A stretch of DNA of 61,420 bases from Candidatus Kaiserbacteria bacterium RIFCSPLOWO2_12_FULL_50_10 (GCA_001783515.1 MFMN01000003.1:1-61420); one strand, 5' to 3'; counted from the stretch's first letter, positions 3,273 through 52,753 are shown. The notes: generated from the letters alone by a model not told the origin. Numbers and translations are program-made.

Positions 3273-5222
3273 TCAGATTATCCGCTCAGGATCATGGGTA
3301 ACCTGGATGGCGTCCCCGAGCGACCCGAGGATATGGGGGAGTGCGGGGTCGGTATCATTGGGGTTAAGGCGTAGGAGCGCGTGGCGGATAGTGAGGGTAC
3401 CATCTGTTTGACCGTTGTAAAAGAACGGTTTTTTTCCGCCGAGGCGCTCTTTGATAACGCTCTCGTGTGCCGCAATGTCTTCAGGCGTGCCGCGATAGGT
3501 GAGGAGGACGAAGCGTGTGAATGGTGGATATCCAAAGGTATCACGTGCAGTAATTTCCTCCGTGTAGAAGCGTTCCGTTGCACCAAGGCGAGCGATGTCG
3601 AGAATGTCATCGGGCTCGACGTCTTTCTTTTCTGCAGAGGCGACGGTGTCCACCCTTGCGTGTTGCGTCTGTGCGTAGACGGTGCCATGCGTGCGTTCGC
3701 GGAGCGTAAGAATGGTGGCAAGCATGTCTTCTTGGGCGCGCCAGGTTGGCGTTGCGCGAAGTGCGTCGGTATTCACGATGACGGACAGTGTGACGTCGTC
3801 ACCGATATAGGGGAGCGCCATAGCGGTCCCGAGCATGAGGGTGCCTGGATTTTGACGGAACCTATCACCAAGGTAACGCGCGCGTTTTGCGGTCGTCGCA
3901 GTGGTGTGATCAAACAAAATAACAGGATGCTCCACACGCTTCACGAGCTCGTCGTAGACATGCTGAATTCCAATGCCGCGTTCGCGAATTCGCCAGGAAC
4001 CACAGTGGGTACAATGATCGGCAGCAGGCAGGCGTACGCCAGAAACTGCATCGACAAAGAGGCGTACCGCTTCGCCGCTTTTTGTGGTGGTACGCACGAG
4101 TGAATAGGGCGCGCCGCTCTGCGGTGAGCGGAAAACGTAGCCGCAGTCAACGCAGGTGACGACAGGTGCGAGTCCGCGTCGTGCAGCATAGAGAAAGACG
4201 CGACCGCCCTCGGCCAAGGTCTTTTCGAGAGCATCAAGCACACGCTTCCCAAACAACTCAAAAGGTTCGGCGTGTGATGAGCGGTGCGGTTTTGCAATGG
4301 GTACTAATTTTCCGGGAAGCGCAAGACGCTTCGGCGTTTCATCAAGTGTCTCGTAGGTGCCGCTGCGGCGGAGATGCTCTGTCTCGACGCGAGGGAAAAG
4401 ATCACCATAAATGAGCGTGCGTCCCGTACGCTCCGCATGCATGCGGACTGCCGTACGCACATCAATATGGGGATAGGTTCTCTGTACGTAATGCGGTGAG
4501 CGCTCGTGCTCAATAATGGTCATGACAATATCATGACGCTCAATGAGGGCGTAGCCGGGGTAGGTGATGATAAGTTTTGGTGTGGCGAATTCTTGGAGCC
4601 CTGCATCAACGGCGCGAAGTTGTTTTGGTGTGAGGTTTGCGTGGATAACAATGGTGCGGTCCTCAATGCCGTGCGCGAGCGTCTTTGCAAGTTCAGTAAC
4701 CTCAATAGAGGTCGGGGCTACAATAAGCACCGAGCCGCCGCGGGCGAATGATTCACGTACGAGCGTGCGGTAGATACGCGTGCGTTCGATATGCGCCCCT
4801 TGCAGTACGCGAATATCTGTTTCAGGAAGGGTTGCCGTTCCGTCAGGCTGCACCACGGCCCCTTTTGGCGTAAATGGAAGAGGTCTGTCGCCGTCGCGAA
4901 TCCCTGCAGGTAAGAGCGCAAAGAGTGCTTCACCAACCGTAATAGCGTAATGGTGTGCAATAGCTACTGCGGTAGCGATGCTTGCAGGTGTAAGTGCTTG
5001 TGCATTTGGTTGCTCGGGAAGTTTTTTGAGAGAGAAGGTCATGCTGCGTAATACCGACTTCACCGACGGCACAGGTTCCGCTGCGACGACCATTGCGGTG
5101 AGGGTACGGTTTCGTACGGGCACGGTAAGGAAGGTGCCGAGCTCATACGGAATACGCGAAAAGTAGGTGAGCTCATCGATATGCCCGCCTTTTTGGAGTG
5201 GTAGTGTGCGAATAATAAACAT
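3273..5222 (-). CDS. priA: Primosomal protein N' (replication restart helicase PriA)
   Basis: 649-aa ORF with a helicase core and the Cys-rich zinc region CVDCGYVF..HCTHCGSW characteristic of PriA. Confidence 0.85.
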   Translation of the reverse strand: MFIIRTLPLQKGGHIDELTYFSRIPYELGTFLTVPVRNRTLTAMVVAAEPVPSVKSVLRSMTFSLKKLPEQPNAQALTPASIATAVAIAHHYAITVGEALFALLPAGIRDGDRPLPFTPKGAVVQPDGTATLPETDIRVLQGAHIERTRIYRTLVRESFARGGSVLIVAPTSIEVTELAKTLAHGIEDRTIVIHANLTPKQLRAVDAGLQEFATPKLIITYPGYALIERHDIVMTIIEHERSPHYVQRTYPHIDVRTAVRMHAERTGRTLIYGDLFPRVETEHLRRSGTYETLDETPKRLALPGKLVPIAKPHRSSHAEPFELFGKRVLDALEKTLAEGGRVFLYAARRGLAPVVTCVDCGYVFRSPQSGAPYSLVRTTTKSGEAVRLFVDAVSGVRLPAADHCTHCGSWRIRERGIGIQHVYDELVKRVEHPVILFDHTTATTAKRARYLGDRFRQNPGTLMLGTAMALPYIGDDVTLSVIVNTDALRATPTWRAQEDMLATILTLRERTHGTVYAQTQHARVDTVASAEKKDVEPDDILDIARLGATERFYTEEITARDTFGYPPFTRFVLLTYRGTPEDIAAHESVIKERLGGKKPFFYNGQTDGTLTIRHALLRLNPNDTDPALPHILGSLGDAIQVTHDPERII

Positions 5223-6529: not shown

Positions 6530-6625
6530 CAGACTTCTTCCAAAATTGGTCCATCTGCACTGCTTTTTCATATTTTTAACCTCCGCCGTATTGTGTATAC
6601 GTCTGCGGTCAAAAATATGAAAAAT

Positions 6626-6655
6626 CAGCACATCTGAACTCAATTTTGAAAGAAG
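6626..6655 (+). repeat. Family-1 palindromic element, right-arm fragment
   Basis: CAGCACATCTGAACTCAATTTTGAAAGAAG matches the right end of the copy at 35585-35704 (about 23/27 by eye). No left arm is present. Confidence 0.55.
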
Positions 6656-10096: not shown

Positions 10097-10429
10097 ATGG
10101 GAATTATTCTAAATCTCGCCGTTACCACCGCGACTATCTTTCTTCTTGCAGAGTATATGACGGGCATATCGGTAGCTTCGTGGAAGGCTGCGCTTTTCGT
10201 CGCCGTTGTCCTTGGGGTTCTTAATATCACGGTGCGCCCTATTTTGTACCTCATAACACTCCCCGTAACCCTCATCACGTTCGGTTTGTTTACCTATGTG
10301 CTGAATGCATTCATGATTATGCTCGTACCCTACGTTGTGAGCGGTTTTTATGTCGCAGGATTTCTACCGGCACTTATTGCGGCGCTTATTATTACCCTCG
10401 TACAAGCAGTGTTTGGGATGGATGACTAA
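10097..10429 (+). CDS. Phage-holin-4_2 (DUF360)-like small membrane protein
   Basis: MGIILNLAVTTATIFLLAEY..VLNITVRPILYLITLPVTLITFGLF pattern with 3-4 TM helices. TATAGT plus 6 nt precedes the ATG. Confidence 0.6.
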   Translation: MGIILNLAVTTATIFLLAEYMTGISVASWKAALFVAVVLGVLNITVRPILYLITLPVTLITFGLFTYVLNAFMIMLVPYVVSGFYVAGFLPALIAALIITLVQAVFGMDD

Positions 10430-10431
10430 GT

Positions 10432-10767
10432 ATGGCAGGAACAACAAAACGGGCAGGAGGGAAGTATGCAAAGAGTCATAGCACCATGATTCCCGCCGCA
10501 GCGCTCATCTGCAAGGCGCTTGAGCGTCTGCCTGAGGTAACCCGCATCTCACTTGGTTTTATTACCGCCGGTATGCGTACGGTAGCTACACGACGTATTA
10601 AGATTGTTACTGCAAATGACGCTGCGCTGAAACTCTCCATCCGAGACCATATTTCCCACCAAGAGATCTATGTATATCTCGGAACCGCACTTGATAAAGA
10701 TTCGGCAATACAAGCCCTCAAAAAAATAGCCACCCGTGAGCATATGGCGGTCAACGGAGAAATCTAG
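10432..10767 (+). CDS. Hypothetical protein
   Basis: 111-aa ORF starting 3 nt after the previous stop. I recognise no family. Confidence 0.4.
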   Translation: MAGTTKRAGGKYAKSHSTMIPAAALICKALERLPEVTRISLGFITAGMRTVATRRIKIVTANDAALKLSIRDHISHQEIYVYLGTALDKDSAIQALKKIATREHMAVNGEI

Positions 10768-14442: not shown

Positions 14443-14448
14443 ACTTTG

Positions 14449-14607
14449 GATAATAAGGAGTTCGGCCACGATCGCTTAGTATTTGTTGTTCGCTTGCGCT
14501 CCAAAATACTAAGCGTTGCCGACCCCGCCTTGCCTCCCATTATATAACTCCGCTAAAGCTACGTAATATAATGGGTTCCCAGACGTCCTTTTGAGCCCCT
14601 TATCGTC
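14449..14607 (+). ncRNA. Candidate structured RNA/element, tRNA-linked family, copy 1 (convergent with tRNA-Val)
   Basis: It has a terminal helix, conserved hairpin 1 (CGCTTAGTATTT/AAATACTAAGCG), TTGCCGACCCCGCCT, and hairpin 2 (CCCATTATAT/ATATAATGGG). It aligns end to end with the reverse complement of 33181-33354. The strand is inferred from shared orientation only. Confidence 0.45.
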
Positions 14608-14621
14608 TCACGGCGGGCAAC

Positions 14622-14647
14622 AAAATAAACGCGTACGCGTTTATTTT
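14622..14647. terminator. Palindromic bidirectional terminator between element and tRNA-Val
   Basis: AAAATAAACGCGTACGCGTTTATTTT is a perfect palindrome. Confidence 0.65.
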
Positions 14648-14655
14648 AGCCGCTG

Positions 14656-14729
14656 TGGACGATAAGGGACTCGAACCCCCGACCTCTGCAATGTCAATGC
14701 AGCGCTCTAACCAGCTGAGCTAACCGTCC
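14656..14729 (-). tRNA. tRNA-Val (anticodon GAC)
   Basis: The reverse complement reads GGACGGTTAGCTCAGCTGGTTAGAGCGCTGCATTGACATTGCAGAGGTCGGGGGTTCGAGTCCCTTATCGTCCA. It folds as a cloverleaf with a 7-bp acceptor stem and a TTGACAT anticodon loop. CCA is not encoded. Confidence 0.9.
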
Positions 14730-14839
14730 GTGTTTTGTAGTATAGCCTTTGTTTGTCGAAGCTGTGGCGACCGTCCGTGTTTCCGTTGCTGCTTTGTGCT
14801 CCGCATTATACATATTTTCATGACAAATACTAGCGTAAG

Positions 14840-17910: not shown

Positions 17911-18150
<240 letters not shown>

Positions 18151-18268
18151 TTCTTCCGAAACGGGCGAATTTGCACTGGTTTCAGAAATATTCTACGCGC
18201 CGTACATGTGGTACGGCTTGGTCGAACACTTCTCTCAGCCAGCACAACTCCATCCCGTTTAGAAAGAA
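18151..18268 (+). repeat. Family-1 palindromic intergenic element, copy A
   Basis: TTCTTCCGAAACGGGCGAATTTGCA...CCCGTTTAGAAAGAA. It starts 0 nt after the atpE TAA. Confidence 0.85.
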
Positions 18269-32806: not shown

Positions 32807-32809
32807 TAG

Positions 32810-32929
32810 TTCTTCCAAAATGGGCGAATTTGCATCAGCTTCGGAAATTTTTATCCTCGCCGTAGGTTGACTACGGCTCCGGTAAAAATTTACCTCCAGC
32901 CGACGCAACTTCATCCCATTTAGAAAGAA
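32810..32929 (+). repeat. Family-1 palindromic intergenic element, copy C
   Basis: It starts 3 nt after the rpmE TAA: TTCTTCCAAAATGGGCGAATTTGCA...CCCATTTAGAAAGAA. Confidence 0.85.
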
Positions 32930-33056
32930 GTACACGTGCGGGAAAACATTTGACAATTTGCTAGATTTCGCTATTATAGCAACACATTCAGGAGACGAAA
33001 GTTTCCGAAATGGTCATAACTGACCGAGCGGCACTACGAAGGTATGTGCCTACCTC

Positions 33057-33129
33057 GGGCCTGTAGCTCATCTGGTAGAGCGCCCCGCTTGCACCGGGGA
33101 GGTAGCGGGTTCAAGTCCTGTCGGGTCCA
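33057..33129 (+). tRNA. tRNA-Ala (anticodon TGC)
   Basis: GGGCCTGTAGCTCATCTGGTAGAGCGCCCCGCTTGCACCGGGGAGGTAGCGGGTTCAAGTCCTGTCGGGTCCA. It folds as a cloverleaf with G3:U70 and a CTTGCAC anticodon loop. Confidence 0.9.
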
Positions 33130-33179
33130 CAAAGACATAAAACCAACGCGTCTAGCGTTGGTTTTATCTTGTCTTTGTG
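33128..33179. terminator. Long perfect hairpin after tRNA-Ala
   Basis: CACAAAGACATAAAACCAACGC-GTCTA-GCGTTGGTTTTATCTTGTCTTTGTG. Confidence 0.7.
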
Positions 33180-33180
33180 A

Positions 33181-33354
33181 GACCCGACAGGACTTGAACG
33201 CCGGAGCCGGTATACAAGATTGTTACTGATACGAAGCTTTTGCGTAGTACAGTAACAATACTTGTCGGAGAGGCGGGGTCGGCAACGCTTAGTATTTTTG
33301 GAGCGGCAGCGAACAACAAATACTTTAGCGATTGTGACCAAGTCCTGTCGGGTC
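33181..33354 (-). ncRNA. Candidate structured RNA/element, tRNA-linked family, copy 2 (convergent with tRNA-Ala)
   Basis: It has a 16-bp terminal helix GACCCGACAGGACTTG/CAAGTCCTGTCGGGTC, the conserved core, and hairpin ATTGTTACTG/CAGTAACAAT. It aligns with 14449-14607. Confidence 0.45.
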
Positions 33355-33364
33355 ATCCCGCATT

Positions 33365-33691
33365 TTACTCGACCGTAAAATTATACCCAGAAAATCTCCC
33401 AGAAAGTATTTGACGCGTGACATCACGGTCTGGTTCAGTCCCGAAAACAGTACTTGTCCCGTAGAGTGTTGCATGGGTGCCTTCCATCTTTATTTTTCCG
33501 CCACCTTTGCAAACACAGATGACATCGTCACCAAGTTCCTTTTGAAACAACGCGAAGAGGTCTTTGTGCCACTCTGCAATGTGTGGTGGCGCTACAGCAA
33601 TATATATTTCTGCACCACAGGTAATCACAATAAATTTTCCACTTTCGAGATGCTCAGTAGGCATAAACACCTGTTGGACTATGTTTTTCAT
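33365..33691 (-). CDS. Hypothetical protein (108 aa)
   Basis: The ORF has AAGTATACT plus 6 nt immediately upstream of the ATG (33698-33703). I recognise no family. Confidence 0.5.
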   Translation of the reverse strand: MKNIVQQVFMPTEHLESGKFIVITCGAEIYIAVAPPHIAEWHKDLFALFQKELGDDVICVCKGGGKIKMEGTHATLYGTSTVFGTEPDRDVTRQILSGRFSGYNFTVE

Positions 33692-34414: not shown

Positions 34415-34472
34415 GTCTTGAGGTTATGAGTCATATAATTCCTCTTGCGAGGTACCTCTCCTCTATCCCGCT
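34415..34472 (-). pseudogene. Partial tRNA-Met copy (5' half plus anticodon loop, 17-nt replacement in anticodon stem)
   Basis: The first 25 nt and the 16 nt CTCATAACCTCAAGAC are identical to the intact gene 38 nt downstream. TGAGG is replaced by CAAGAGGAATTATATGA. There is no T arm and no acceptor 3' strand. Confidence 0.7.
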
Positions 34473-34550
34473 ATATTTTCTGATGATGTTTGGGAACCTG
34501 TACCATAACAAAAAAGATGACAAAAGTCCAGTCGCTCATTTGATGTGGCG

Positions 34551-35584: not shown

Positions 35585-35704
35585 GAACTTCCAAAATTGG
35601 CACATTTGCACATGCTTCAGTCGCTCGCTTCTCGCGGTACGTTGGGTACCGCTCCTGCGCTCACTTCTTCCAGCCAGCACAACTGCGCTCAATTTTGAAA
35701 GTTC
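35585..35704 (+). repeat. Family-1 palindromic intergenic element, copy D (variant interior)
   Basis: It starts 2 nt after the mreB TAG: GAACTTCCAAAATTGGCACATTTGCA...CTCAATTTTGAAAGTTC. Confidence 0.8.
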
Positions 35705-36056: not shown

Positions 36057-36072
36057 AATACTATATACCAAC

Positions 36073-36228
36073 GCTTGGGTAGCTCAGTTTGAGGAGACCG
36101 ACCGCTTCCGCGGACCAGGTCGGTCTCGCTGCTAAGGATGTCGGCCGCCGCCGACACTATCAAAAATGTTTGCTTTCGCAAACATGGCAGATAGAGCACT
36201 CATTGCCTGCGATGGAATGCTGAAGAGT
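36073..36228 (+). pseudogene. Degenerate tRNA-Phe copy 1 with ~102-nt D-loop insert
   Basis: GCTTGGGTAGCTCAGTT is identical to the intact gene. Then comes an insert at 36090-36191 with three hairpins, then TAGAGCACTC, an 18-nt insert and CTGAAGAG. There is no T arm. Confidence 0.65.
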
Positions 36229-36235
36229 ATAATAC

Positions 36236-36308
36236 GCTTGGGTAGCTCAGTTGGTAGAGCACTCCCCTGAAGAGGGAGGGGTCACCAGTTCGACCCTGGT
36301 CCCAAGCA
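36236..36308 (+). tRNA. tRNA-Phe (anticodon GAA)
   Basis: GCTTGGGTAGCTCAGTTGGTAGAGCACTCCCCTGAAGAGGGAGGGGTCACCAGTTCGACCCTGGTCCCAAGCA. It folds as a canonical cloverleaf. Confidence 0.9.
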
Positions 36309-36317
36309 CAAAATAAA

Positions 36318-36486
36318 TAGCTCAGTTGGACACCGCTCCACTACGTTCCGCGGCGCAGAGCCTGCACTCGCGATCAAAAAGAACATGCCCTACGGGACAC
36401 GTTCTTTTTGTCACTCGTTTGACTCTGATAGAGCACTCCCCTGAAGAGGGAGGGTGTCGCCGAGTTCCGAACCCTGGTCCCAAGCA
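36318..36486 (+). pseudogene. Degenerate tRNA-Phe copy 3 with 99-nt D-loop insert, lacking 5' acceptor strand
   Basis: TAGCTCAGTTGG, then an insert at 36330-36428, then TAGAGCACTCCCCTGAAGAGGGAGGG (identical anticodon arm). A corrupted T arm follows, then CCCTGGTCCCAAGCA. Confidence 0.65.
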
Positions 36487-36491
36487 CCTAT

Positions 36492-44949: not shown

Positions 44950-45008
44950 AGGAGCAGTGTAGCATAATGCATATCGTTTCGCACATTCGTGGTATACTTT
45001 CGGGTAGT

Positions 45009-47021
45009 ATGACCTCGATAGATCCTGAGCGAATTACCTATTTTGCAGAGACGGACGCGCGCGGGAAGCGTGTGCCGTTTGGTATACGCGCAAAGGATCG
45101 TACTCGTCATGTGTATGTCATCGGGAAGTCAGGCATGGGCAAATCAACCCTGCTTGAAAACATGGCCGTGCAAGACATTCGTAATGGCGAAGGTTTCGCT
45201 TTTATCGACCCCCACGGACAATCGGCAGACGCCATCATGCGACATATCCCGCAAGAGCGTCTCAAAGACGTGCTGTATTTTAATCCGTCTGATCTCGCGC
45301 ACCCGATTGCGTTCAATGTGCTCGAGCGCGTTGACCCAGACAAGCGGTTTTTGGTAGTTGCCGGACTCATGTCGGTCTTTAAGAAGATTTGGGTCGATGC
45401 ATGGTCGGCGCGTATGGAGTATTTGCTCCAGTACACGCTCTCGGCGCTCCTTGAATATCCTGATGCGACACTCCTTGGTGTGAACCGCATGCTCTCCGAA
45501 AAAGGGTATCGAGATGCGGTGGTGGCACACGTCACCGACCCTGCGGTGAAGTCGTTCTGGGAAGACGAGTACGCGAAGTATTCCGAAAAGTACGCACAAG
45601 AAGCGGGCGATGCGATTAAAAACAAAATTGGTCAGTTCACGTCGAACCCCGTTGTGCGTAACATTATCGGGCAGTCACACACAAGTTTTAATTTGCGTAA
45701 GTTTATGGATGAACGCAAAATCCTCATCGTGAACCTCTCAAAAGGACTCATTGGTGAGTCGAACGCAAACCTGCTTGGTTCAATGCTTACGACGAGTATC
45801 TATCTTGCTGCGATGAGTCGTGCAGATTTATCACCGCGTGAGCACGCCGCTGCGCCAAACTTTTATTTCTACGTTGATGAGTTTCAGTCTTTTGCGAACG
45901 CGACGTTTGCGAACATTTTGTCCGAGGCGCGCAAATATAAACTCAACCTCACCATCGCGCACCAGTACGTCGACCAAATGGAAGAAGACGTGCGTAATGC
46001 GGTGTTCGGCAACGTGGGTACCACGATTACTTTTCGTGTGGGGCCGCTCGATGCGGAGGTGCTCGAAAAGATGTTTGAGCCGACCTTTATGGCGACGGAT
46101 ATCGTCTCGCTTGGCTTTGCGCAGATTTATCTCACCATGATGATTGATGGCATCGGGTCGCCGCCGTTTTCTGCAAAGACACTTCCGCCAATCCGTGAAC
46201 CAGAGACGACATACTACGATGTGGCGATTGCGGAGAGTCGTAAGCAGTTTAGTTTGCCTCGCGCGGAGGCCGAGGTGAAAGTAAATGCATTTTATACGGA
46301 ACAATTCGCATCAGCATCAACTGCAAAAAAAGACTTTAAGAAAGATTTCAAAAAAGAAGGCGAGCGAAGTCCTCGCGCAGAGCGTGCGGTGCCTGATGAT
46401 CGAAAACCTCTTTCCGATGAGGAAAAGTCGCGTCATAAAGATGACTTACGTGCGATCCTCTCTGGTTTGGGTGAAGCGCGCCCTGCAGAAGTTTTGACGA
46501 CATCCCCTGAAAAAGAAGAAGAGACATTCGAAGAAAAGCCTACACCAGTCCAAGAAGTTCCTGTACGCAAGGAACCTCGACCTGAAGCAGGAACTAGGGA
46601 AGAGGCGCGTCCGCCACGTCGTCCTGCTCGAGACCTAAGTGCGCGTGAGCGTGGGACAAAGCAAGCGTACGTAGATCACGAACCACCGAAGCAGCACGAC
46701 TTAAAAAACGCTCTCGCCGCTGCACTTGCAGGCATAACACCTCCCGAAAAAGTAGTGTATGAAGAGCCGGTGCCGCGCACCGCCCCTGAAGTCGTCTCTG
46801 TCGTCATTCCTGAAACCCCCGCACCGTCAGTCAAAGAAGATACGCTTGCCGAATCCCACCCCCTGAAACCGAAAGATGTAGAAAAGCTTCGCAAGCACTT
46901 TGACGAAAAAGCCGCTGAAGTTTCTGCCCTACAACGTGCACCGCACGAAGTTACGCCGCAAGCGCTTGCGCACATGATGCGCATCACACTTCGCGATAAA
47001 AAACGTCGCCCAACATCATAA
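45009..47021 (+). CDS. T4SS coupling-protein-type (TraD/VirD4/TrwB-like) P-loop ATPase with long charged C-terminal tail
   Basis: Walker [10 protein letters not shown], Walker [12 protein letters not shown], and [22 protein letters not shown] plus 10 nt precedes the ATG. There is no N-terminal TM segment. Confidence 0.65.
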
Positions 47022-52638: not shown

Positions 52639-52753
52639 CGCCCAAAATCGGCGAATTTGCACCAGCTTCGTGAAATTTTCTCTCCAACGTACGTCAGGTA
52701 CGACTCCGAGAAAATTTCACTCCAGCCGGCACAACTTCATCCGATTTTGATCG
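52639..52753 (+). repeat. Family-1 palindromic intergenic element, copy E
   Basis: It starts 0 nt after the TGA: CGCCCAAAATCGGCGAATTTGCA...CCGATTTTGATCG. Confidence 0.8.

Follow-up and report, generated by a model that had tools for sequence, protein, structure and literature searches.

A family of small non-coding structured elements located behind tRNA gene terminators in two Kaiserbacteria species

The window analysed in this work is a stretch of 61,420 nucleotides (nt) from Candidatus Kaiserbacteria bacterium RIFCSPLOWO2_12_FULL_50_10 (GCA_001783515.1 MFMN01000003.1:1-61420), a genome referred to below as W. Two segments of this window, copy A next to a tRNA-Val gene and copy B next to a tRNA-Ala gene, are members of a real, non-random and apparently undescribed family of small non-coding structured elements lying behind the terminators of tRNA genes. 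The family comprises at least 8 distinct copies in two Kaiserbacteria species (Patescibacteria, also known as the candidate phyla radiation, CPR), together with more distant relatives in two further genomes. No description of such an element was found in a full-text literature search. Each copy consists of a conserved folded core closed by two arms that reproduce the end of the neighbouring tRNA gene, and it is proposed, tentatively, that the family may be mobile.

The nearest sequenced relative of W is Ca. Kaiserbacteria RIFCSPHIGHO2_02_FULL_49_34 (MFLE01), referred to as M. On sequence grounds M is a separate species, its identity to W being 70-79% in flanking coding DNA and about 85-87% in ribosomal protein genes. 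The 8 copies were gathered via pattern scans, synteny walks and inspection of tRNA flanks, and are named after their genome and tRNA. Genome W contains W_Val (copy A, window 14448-14611), W_Ala (copy B, window 33181-33354), W_His (L114:4680-4915) and W_Gly (L121:6217-6379), whereas genome M contains M_Val (L100:6869-7046), M_Ala (L003/L038), M_Lys (L001:4888-5070) and M_Phe (L003:3262-3545). The element occupies 4/9 of the tRNA genes seen in W and 4/6 of those seen in M. Its length is about 160-285 bp, with a core of about 130-250 nt, the long variants (His, Phe) displaying additional hairpins, one of them inside the 3' arm.

Anatomy of the arms and their match to the neighbouring tRNA gene

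The organisation of the element is conveniently described using X for the last 16-21 bp of a tRNA gene and X' for its inverted copy. Along the tRNA strand, every copy displays the layout tRNA[X] - trailer - terminator - trailer' - X' - core - X. X begins in the T-loop and continues to the 3' end of the tRNA gene; the far X repeats it directly, on the strand of the tRNA gene. The far X starts at T-loop position C56 in every copy and X' ends at G53/T54. X' and the far X pair with each other and close the conserved folded core, thereby forming what a previous sequence-only reading of the window had termed a terminal helix. That reading had been drawn from copies A and B and had proposed, as a test, that further copies should carry termini matching their own tRNA. 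The test was passed: the arms match the neighbouring tRNA in 8/8 copies, distributed over six tRNA species (Val, Ala, His, Gly, Lys, Phe).

Both arms are exact in copy B, which is read on the - strand. Its 5' arm (33339..33354) repeats 16 nt of the tRNA-Ala gene end (33112-33127) directly and without mismatch, and its 3' arm (33181..33199) is an exact 19-nt inverted copy of the same end (33109-33127). The source of both arms, tRNA-Ala(TGC), is located at 33057..33130 (+) and is followed by trailer, bidirectional terminator (33137-33167) and trailer' (CACAAAGACA / TGTCTTTGTG), which together span 33131..33180. The direct arm is likewise identical to the tRNA-Ala gene end at all compared positions in both genomes (16/16 in W_Ala, 19/19 in M_Ala).

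In copy A, read on the + strand, the 5' arm (14448..14465) repeats the 3' end of the tRNA-Val gene directly, in decayed form; it is the antisense of the segment from C56 to the 3' end and pairs with the 3' arm. It is identical to the M_Val arm at 14/18 positions, and a derived C>T change is common to both. The 3' arm (14590..14611) is the inverted tRNA-Val gene end, from T-loop to 3' end, its last bases being CAC; the corresponding inverted repeat, 14590-14607 versus 14658-14675, is 89% identical. Trailer', bidirectional terminator (14622-14647) and trailer occupy 14612..14654 at the centre of the palindrome, with 91% identity between W and M, and lead to the arm source, tRNA-Val(GAC), at 14655..14729 (-). 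The terminal pairing announced by the sequence-only reading is complete in copy B (16/16, 33181-33196 with 33339-33354) and imperfect in copy A, and the derivation of the 3' arm from the neighbouring tRNA end holds for both copies (19/19 for Ala, 16/18 for Val). The common ending GTCTCAC, noted in the same reading, turns out to be the tRNA's GTCCAC with one inserted T and does not occur in the Lys, Gly, His and Phe copies.

As a result of this layout, tRNA end (~19 nt), trailer, terminator stems, inverted trailer and 3' arm make up a single long imperfect palindrome, whose arms measure about 45 nt and whose centre is the terminator loop. The specificity of the inverted arm was assessed on 31 tRNA records, in which several loci duplicate one genome region. 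A 16-nt inverted copy of the gene's own end, placed 47-50 nt downstream with 0-2 mismatches, was observed solely beside the element. Control tRNAs without the element give 6-8 mismatches to their own inverted end, and two copies split by a hairpin score 3 and 4. Chance is ruled out as the source of the tRNA-matched inverted arm. The two arms differ in their preservation, the inverted arm being essentially (about 100%) identical to the tRNA whereas the far direct arm shows a decay that begins at its outer end. Wobble-compatible changes and one compensatory change preserve the inner part of the closing helix. The T-loop consensus GTTCRA, which is nearly self-complementary, is found at both inner arm ends.

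This preservation of the inner helix is one of the observations expected if the element were a host structured non-coding RNA gene, transcribed toward the terminator shared with the tRNA, an explanation that we consider unlikely while still giving it appreciable weight. In its possible variants, the closing helix would mimic the acceptor/T-arm minihelix of the neighbouring tRNA and be processed by tRNA end-maturation enzymes, or the 5' arm would be antisense to the tRNA 3' end. The last ~65 nt of such an RNA would equal the 3' part of the pre-tRNA, because the region is a palindrome. The details of the arms are less favourable to it. Mimicry needs no identity to the neighbouring tRNA, the 5' arm corresponds to the tRNA gene (GTGGACCC...) and not to the CCA-tailed mature tRNA, and the G3:U70 pair of tRNA-Ala becomes A-U in the helix. 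Two narrower candidates were rejected on the last two points, respectively a primer-binding site of the retroviral type, which the match to the gene instead of the CCA-tailed tRNA contradicts, and a minihelix mimic directed at alanyl-tRNA synthetase, for which G3:U70 would have to be retained.

Fold of the core, strand and further homologues

The two window copies align end to end, as originally noticed, and their common core is confirmed by the 20-mer AAGCGTTGCCGACCCCGCCT, found in the window only at 14511-14530 (+) and 33271-33290 (-) where shuffled sequences would lead to expect 0.01. Covariation was scored on A5, a curated alignment covering the 5' domain in all eight copies, for which the proposed helices are GGUC/GACC, CRRU/RYYG and hairpin 1. 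In this structure 87% of the cells are paired and both sides are changed in 9/22 pairs. None of 500 shuffles attains any of the five measures used (0/500), and slid controls reach 31-42% of paired cells. The core fold is supported by covariation in the aligned sequences, the same signal being expected for an RNA or for folded single-stranded DNA.

The 5' domain of the copy A core (14466..14535, +) is composed of the junction GGCCAC, the helix CGAU/GUUG, hairpin 1 and the junction CCGACCCCGCC, and scores 78.3 bits with a covariance model (CM). The copy B core (33200..33338, -), which scores 85.8 bits, consists of GGUCAC, hairpin 1, CCGACCCCGCC-UC-UCCG, a long hairpin 2 and CCGG-CUCC-GGCG. Depending on the copy, one and the same helix position is filled by CAAU/GUUG, CGAU/AUCG or CAGU/ACUG. 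Hairpin 1, located at 14473-14484 / 14504-14515 (+) in copy A, was correctly recognised by the sequence-only reading as CGCTTAGTATTT/AAATACTAAGCG. Across the family it is mostly GCUAAGUAUUU/AAAUACUAAGC, but CUGUAGUUU/AAACUACAG at tRNA-Gly, with retention of the loop UUCGCU..GCUC that is also present in copy A. An irregularity 3 bp from its base is conserved as well, in the form of an A.A mismatch or, at tRNA-Gly, of a bulged U (T). The junction CCCGCC-UC-GCC ... GGC-UCC-GGCG is also conserved and looks like a GC helix with an internal loop (UC/UCC).

The hairpin enclosed between these junctions is variable and exists in at least three unrelated versions. In copy A, hairpin 2 and the 3' junction UUCCCAGACGUCC cover 14536..14589 (+), with a stem at 14536-14548 / 14563-14575; in copy B the long hairpin 2 is built on 33219-33228 / 33250-33259 plus extensions (-). 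Both 10-bp second hairpins described earlier were recovered by a repeat finder, and their loops are indeed identical at 16/20 positions. The different stems around these loops had been regarded as the product of selection on the fold. They belong to two hairpin 2 module types, and that of copy A recurs at tRNA-Gly; the difference is therefore one of modules and not of stepwise compensation. The P3 helix is degenerate in copy A.

The strand on which the element might act, previously given as convergent with the tRNA, is decided neither by G-U versus A-C counts nor by alifold energies. Both window copies fold much better than shuffles, with z values of -4.0 and -7.7, and the opposite strand does so at least equally well (-5.3 and -8.8). 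In the alifold analysis, the consensus energy is -65 on the strand initially proposed and -77 on the tRNA strand, and the count of G-U versus A-C in the 5' domain is 5:4. The substitutions accumulated by the decaying 5' arm are wobble-compatible more often on the strand initially proposed, roughly 9 versus 3. Promoter scans found no sigma-70-like promoter upstream of any copy. An outward promoter formed by hairpin 1 and the decayed arm was considered and rejected, being present only at tRNA-His; elsewhere it would be antisense to the neighbouring genes. The host RNA gene introduced above gains from the covarying helices, the conserved loops and junctions and the hairpin insertions of variable length, while the balanced G-U to A-C count, the better folding of the opposite strand and the missing promoter-like sites weigh against it.

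Copy B is spanned by an open reading frame (ORF) of 81 amino acids (33111-33356), contrary to the statement that neither copy contains one. Its frame is broken in the orthologous copy, and this ORF is therefore regarded as non-coding; a protein-coding reading was rejected more generally since ORFs are not conserved between orthologous copies. The failure to match any known RNA family was confirmed. With Rfam 15, only tRNAs reach the gathering score among families including transfer-messenger RNA (tmRNA), RNase P, signal recognition particle RNA, 6S, T-box, Y RNA, ribozymes, group I/II introns and ROOL/GOLLD. At E<=10, three copies return only weak hairpin-type chance matches, far under threshold. 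ARAGORN reports the neighbouring tRNAs only, with no tmRNA or tRNA-like gene in the element.

The search for further homologues was conducted with patterns and with a CM. Exact and degenerate core patterns applied to 185,579 GTDB species and to JGI metagenomes retrieved only MFLE01 and its metagenome contigs, the remaining roughly 90 matches being due to chance. No element was detected in viral contigs and GenBank phages, one of the viral patterns being weak on account of a gap range too short for the common core type. No autonomous relative of the element was found in the collections scanned. The CM built from the eight copies finds just those eight in 238 kb of W, M and relatives. With filters off, it reveals an independent homologue beside the tRNA-Lys gene of a more distantly related genome (L125:11539-11609, 36.2 bits, E 2e-6) which retains the fold with new compensatory changes, and whose locus also has the X - terminator - X' palindrome, X' being split by a hairpin. 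A borderline match occurs by tRNA-Thr in another genome (L123, 15.8 bits, E 0.11). In view of these two candidates, the family is wider than exact patterns show and diverges fast. The closest further relatives (L31 protein 80-81% identical) provide no new copies, their contigs ending in or at the tRNA-Ala gene. Three related assemblies, at the contig ends of L109 and L110 and at position 1 of L003, break inside or exactly at the tRNA-Ala 3' end; the long palindrome made by the element may be what breaks assemblies at this gene.

The homologue in a third genome, with its own compensatory changes, is also what a host RNA would produce. For a plain decaying repeat or a chance similarity, on the other hand, the probability is negligible: such an origin would account for the partly degenerate state of copy A, for its decayed arms and for its broken P3, and is refuted by the covariation statistics, by the 8/8 linkage to tRNAs, by the control tRNAs and by the independent CM match in another genome.

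Presence, absence and exchange between genomes

The tRNA-His site is occupied in W and empty in M. The terminators of the two genomes are orthologous, with a compensatory stem change, and the additional DNA of W begins directly after the T-tract, behind the native terminator. The inserted DNA corresponds to trailer' - X' - core - X, a second, unrelated small repeat being found farther on. This palindromic repeat, with ends CTAACTCCTGGATCCCG.CAGGATGACAAA, is present at L118:4232-4385, L114:~4985-5040 and L003:~380-440; one copy lies just past W_His, and the right boundary of the W_His insertion is therefore harder to define.

The role of a small integrative element targeting tRNA 3' ends, one of those imagined in the sequence-only reading, fits best with the occupied and empty sites and with the direct repeat. 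Its classical version, by means of an integrase, fails at tRNA-His. According to this version the copies would be mini-elements or scars left by integration at the T-loop, the incoming DNA supplying a new tRNA 3' end and a terminator and the far repeat being the displaced original end (attachment sites attL/attR). The segment from T-loop to 3' end is the usual identity block of T-loop-targeting integrases, and the direct repeat of the element indeed extends over 16-21 bp from T-loop C56 to the 3' end. A terminator also follows the far repeat at tRNA-Val and tRNA-Phe, where the picture is ambiguous, and further small inserts in the same genomes contain long direct copies of the 3' half of a tRNA. 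At tRNA-His, however, the proximal terminator is orthologous to the native one of the empty site, with the insert located behind it. For that copy this rules out T-loop integration of DNA bringing its own terminator, a mechanism that was rejected as a general model after this comparison. The inverted arm is moreover left unexplained, no integrase is encoded in or beside any copy, and cores that are 95% identical carry unrelated 'att' sequences. Overall, integrase-mediated scars appear highly doubtful as the origin of the family.

The tRNA-Val gene is empty in L108, which is an outgroup to W and M, and W_Val and M_Val have a derived far-arm change in common; the tRNA-Val insertion is therefore older than the W/M split. 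At tRNA-Phe the element is present in M only. The comparison of orthologous copies between W and M gives contrasting results. For the Ala copy, the core is 97.1% identical, the terminator 96% and each arm, inverted or direct, 100%, within immediate flanks of 56-67%. For the Val copy, the corresponding figures are 65-76%, 91%, 91% (inverted arm) and 78% (direct arm), within immediate flanks of 63-71%, and the divergence of the core is about equal to that of its flanks. A core at 97.1% amid diverged flanks for Ala, combined with 65-76% for Val, is indicative of a recent exchange of the Ala copy and not of uniform constraint.

Cores and arms are also dissociated within the family. The M_Lys core is 95% identical to the W_Ala core, with unrelated arms and terminators. 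M_Val combines a hairpin 1 of the Phe type with a hairpin 2 of the Ala type, and the hairpin 2 type of W_Val is that of W_Gly. In these comparisons, the element behaves like a copied, homogenised and exchanged sequence and unlike a uniformly constrained gene. Retention at tRNA-Val since before the W/M split would suit a host RNA, whereas the tRNA-Val core diverging about as quickly as its flanks and the gain or loss of sites between close genomes would not. Two features of the surroundings may be mentioned. The far end of M_Lys abuts a holA-like gene (L001:4071-5075); in W (L114:10001-11301) and in a third genome (L116) holA is directly followed by rnhB, with no tRNA, and the far end of M_Lys therefore coincides with a rearrangement breakpoint. 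The gene of the Janus/Ocnus family located past W_Ala (33365-33691) is absent in MFLE01.

The dissociation of cores and arms would also be expected of a programmable guide, or bridge-like, RNA. At an unoccupied tRNA gene, its antisense and sense arms would each pair with one of the two DNA strands, thereby allowing homing. Such an RNA would direct a recombinase, nuclease or reverse transcriptase encoded in trans and overlaps in this respect with a mobile element. It would explain a constant core with locus-specific arms always matching the target at six tRNAs, near-identical cores bearing unrelated arms, the fixed insertion position 47-50 nt past the tRNA end and the near-identity across genomes at the same tRNA. 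Against this, no partner gene was found adjoining any copy, the arms are what any target-duplicating insertion leaves, and known guide RNAs carry no mutually complementary guides. This explanation is regarded as improbable. Scarcely better placed is the more specific suggestion that the core would be the scaffold of a homing RNA re-aimable at different tRNAs, copied in behind the terminator by a trans-encoded enzyme, for example by terminator-primed reverse transcription.

Proposed origin, neighbouring repeats and comparison with known systems

The explanation favoured here, which may well be correct without quite reaching an even chance, is that of a non-autonomous non-coding mobile element spreading through a folded single-stranded intermediate. 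It takes as its basis what was observed directly, namely the anatomy, the family, the covarying fold, presence and absence at orthologous sites, the tRNA-His insertion point and the near-identity of one copy, to which it adds mobility, a single-stranded intermediate, a fold-back step and a trans-acting enzyme as matters of inference. The element would be mobile or at least duplicative, the intermediate would be a folded RNA or single-stranded DNA, and the enzyme would be encoded elsewhere. Entry would take place just 3' of the tRNA terminator. The palindrome would be best explained if the terminator hairpin were copied across, by fold-back or template switching, so that the inverted arm is made, or held identical to the tRNA. 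A 3' end situated at the foot of the terminator could snap back, or anneal to a template bearing the same palindromic terminator, and its extension, templated by trailer and tRNA end, would yield their reverse complements, trailer' and X'. Hairpin-templated correction would subsequently keep X' equal to the selected tRNA, the far arm being free to drift; a nearly identical X' with a decayed far arm is the pattern expected from such correction, as observed. The T-loop consensus at the inner arm ends might serve as microhomology for switching between the local tRNA and the donor core. The tRNA-derived terminal helix is more likely the footprint of insertion or maintenance than the sign of an RNA acting on tRNA.

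The proposal agrees with the lack of coding capacity, the lack of an Rfam match and the housekeeping type of the flanks. Copy A has GatB, a membrane protein, an SLT-domain protein and ATP synthase as neighbours, the adjoining protein being 67% identical between W and M, and copy B is surrounded by ribosomal proteins L2 and L31, the Janus/Ocnus-family protein and MreB. A number of observations weigh against the proposal. No transposase, integrase or reverse transcriptase gene adjoins any copy, about 100 kb of W shows one Xer-like recombinase only, and the proteins scanned or tabulated, whether around six loci or in the window, yielded no reverse transcriptase domain. A consistent target-site duplication was not seen: a possible pair AGTTTTTCT / AGTTTCT exists at tRNA-His only, with the second unrelated insert in between, and none at the other copies. 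An excised or circular form was not seen either, and the proposal does not account for the way in which a copy would obtain arms matching a new tRNA. Orthology between W and M shows the tRNA-Val copy to be old, which implies long persistence of the element in genomes of about 1 Mb and would fit a host function as well. Finally, the conserved loops, the internal loop (UC/UCC) and the hairpin 1 irregularity, all conserved, look like those of a functional RNA.

Several other repeats and inserts were encountered near tRNA genes and elsewhere in these genomes. A second kind of insert, of about 170-210 nt, is located behind tRNA-Phe (window 36236-36487) and tRNA-Thr(GGT) (L121:2880-3164). It displays a homologous core (GCTCCACTWCGTTCCGC...), its own terminator, then a 38-58-nt direct copy of the tRNA 3' part and, beyond this copy, an apparent native terminator, the inverted copy being absent. 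It is found at more than one tRNA and, by its organisation, looks like a remnant of integration of the anticodon- or D-loop type. Upstream of tRNA-Phe, the window contains at 36070-36201 a fragment of the tRNA-Phe 5' end (GGGTAGCTCAGTT ... GATAGAGCACTC) whose D-loop is split by a ~110-nt structured insert. The same arrangement is found at L003:2980-3110, and a similar insert lies upstream of tRNA-Lys in M (L001:4614-4731). Copies of tRNA-Met parts were noted as well, a 5'-half upstream of tRNA-Met at 34415-34481 in the window and tandem tRNA-Met-like units downstream of tRNA-Met in M (L003:1200-1430), the latter not called by ARAGORN. An 83% direct repeat of the tRNA-Val 5' end and leader (AGCTG.GGCGACCGTCCGTGTTT) at window 14760-14782, 47 nt upstream of the gene, is conserved in both other genomes examined.

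An intergenic repeat of ~120 nt with short inverted ends (TTCCAAAATGGG ... CCCATTTAGAA) occurs in the window at 6533-6655, 18148-18268, 32807-32930, 35588-35701 and 52642-52750, with further copies in M (L038:8502-8623, 10338-10451). It is probably an ordinary miniature inverted-repeat transposable element (MITE). Among possible mobility functions, a gene for an Xer-like tyrosine recombinase beside an HU gene (L121:4261-5178, -) lies 0.9 kb from the tRNA-Gly copy, and a TraG/VirD4-like coupling ATPase gene followed by an ORF of 1696 amino acids is present at window 44967-47021 (+); no link to the element could be established for either.

Among known systems, those closest to the element in the way they work are MITEs and att-flanked gene-less integrative elements, although it lacks defining features of both. 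With MITEs, repetitive extragenic palindromic sequences (REP), bacterial interspersed mosaic elements (BIME) and Correia elements it has in common to be short, non-coding, multi-copy, bounded by inverted repeats, able to fold into hairpins, located at gene ends or terminators and variably present. Its inverted repeats, however, are not a fixed transposase-binding sequence but are locus-specific and copied from the neighbouring tRNA gene, and neither a related autonomous element nor a regular target-site duplication was found for it. Islands integrating into tRNA genes, and their gene-less cis-mobilisable derivatives, are similarly bordered by a directly repeated tRNA 3' segment that starts in the T-loop. 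The element differs from them by the lack of an integrase, by the extra inverted copy, by the native terminator kept at tRNA-His and by a single core that is used at six tRNAs or more. Class C group II introns of bacteria insert just downstream of intrinsic terminator hairpins and may lack an ORF. The element too is structured, ORF-less and placed behind terminators, but it is far smaller (core of about 130-250 nt versus at least 400-600 nt), displays no detected group II domains and duplicates the neighbouring tRNA end.

In integron attC sites and in the attP(+) of CTX phage, inverted segments fold into a target-like duplex whose stems vary while the irregularities are conserved. The layout X - linker - X' - rest - X of the element is that expected from the integration of a folded circle; on the other hand its linker is the native terminator, at least at tRNA-His, and its target is a tRNA gene end. 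Elements derived from IS200/IS605 would have subterminal imperfect hairpins recognised by a Y1 transposase and would insert 3' of a fixed tetra- or pentanucleotide with no duplication of the target. In the present element, hairpin 1 has its conserved irregularity 3 bp from the base, and the target is duplicated. The sole Y1_Tnp seen, encoded 3 kb from the distant L125 copy, was set aside, as the gene is truncated and its ends are unrelated. Like the IS110 bridge RNA and the omega RNA of TnpB/IscB, the element associates a constant structured scaffold with short variable segments matching the insertion site; unlike them, it is adjoined by no recombinase or nuclease gene and its variable segments are mutually complementary. 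It differs from retron non-coding RNA by the lack of an adjoining reverse transcriptase gene. Paired 5' and 3' ends with T-loop and acceptor sequence in the 3' strand are also found in tmRNA, YrlA and viral tRNA-like structures, but the element has no T-arm and its T-loop bases lie in a continuous helix.

For genome analysis, the palindromes created by the element at tRNA ends could be mistaken for integrase att sites. The element is found on about half of the tRNA genes seen, in CPR genomes of about 1 Mb where non-coding DNA is scarce. Given this high occupancy in compact genomes, it is either a parasite of unusual success or an RNA of the host that is tied to tRNA genes. If mobile, its terminal repeats are not fixed but copied from the tRNA gene at the landing site, which implies a mechanism of insertion or maintenance, for instance terminator fold-back copying or guide-like targeting, undescribed for bacterial repeats. 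The design, with its constant scaffold and variable arms, resembles that of programmable nucleic-acid-guided systems. Should the homing explanation be true, the family would represent a bridge-RNA-like or target-primed system of CPR bacteria using tRNA genes as safe harbours.

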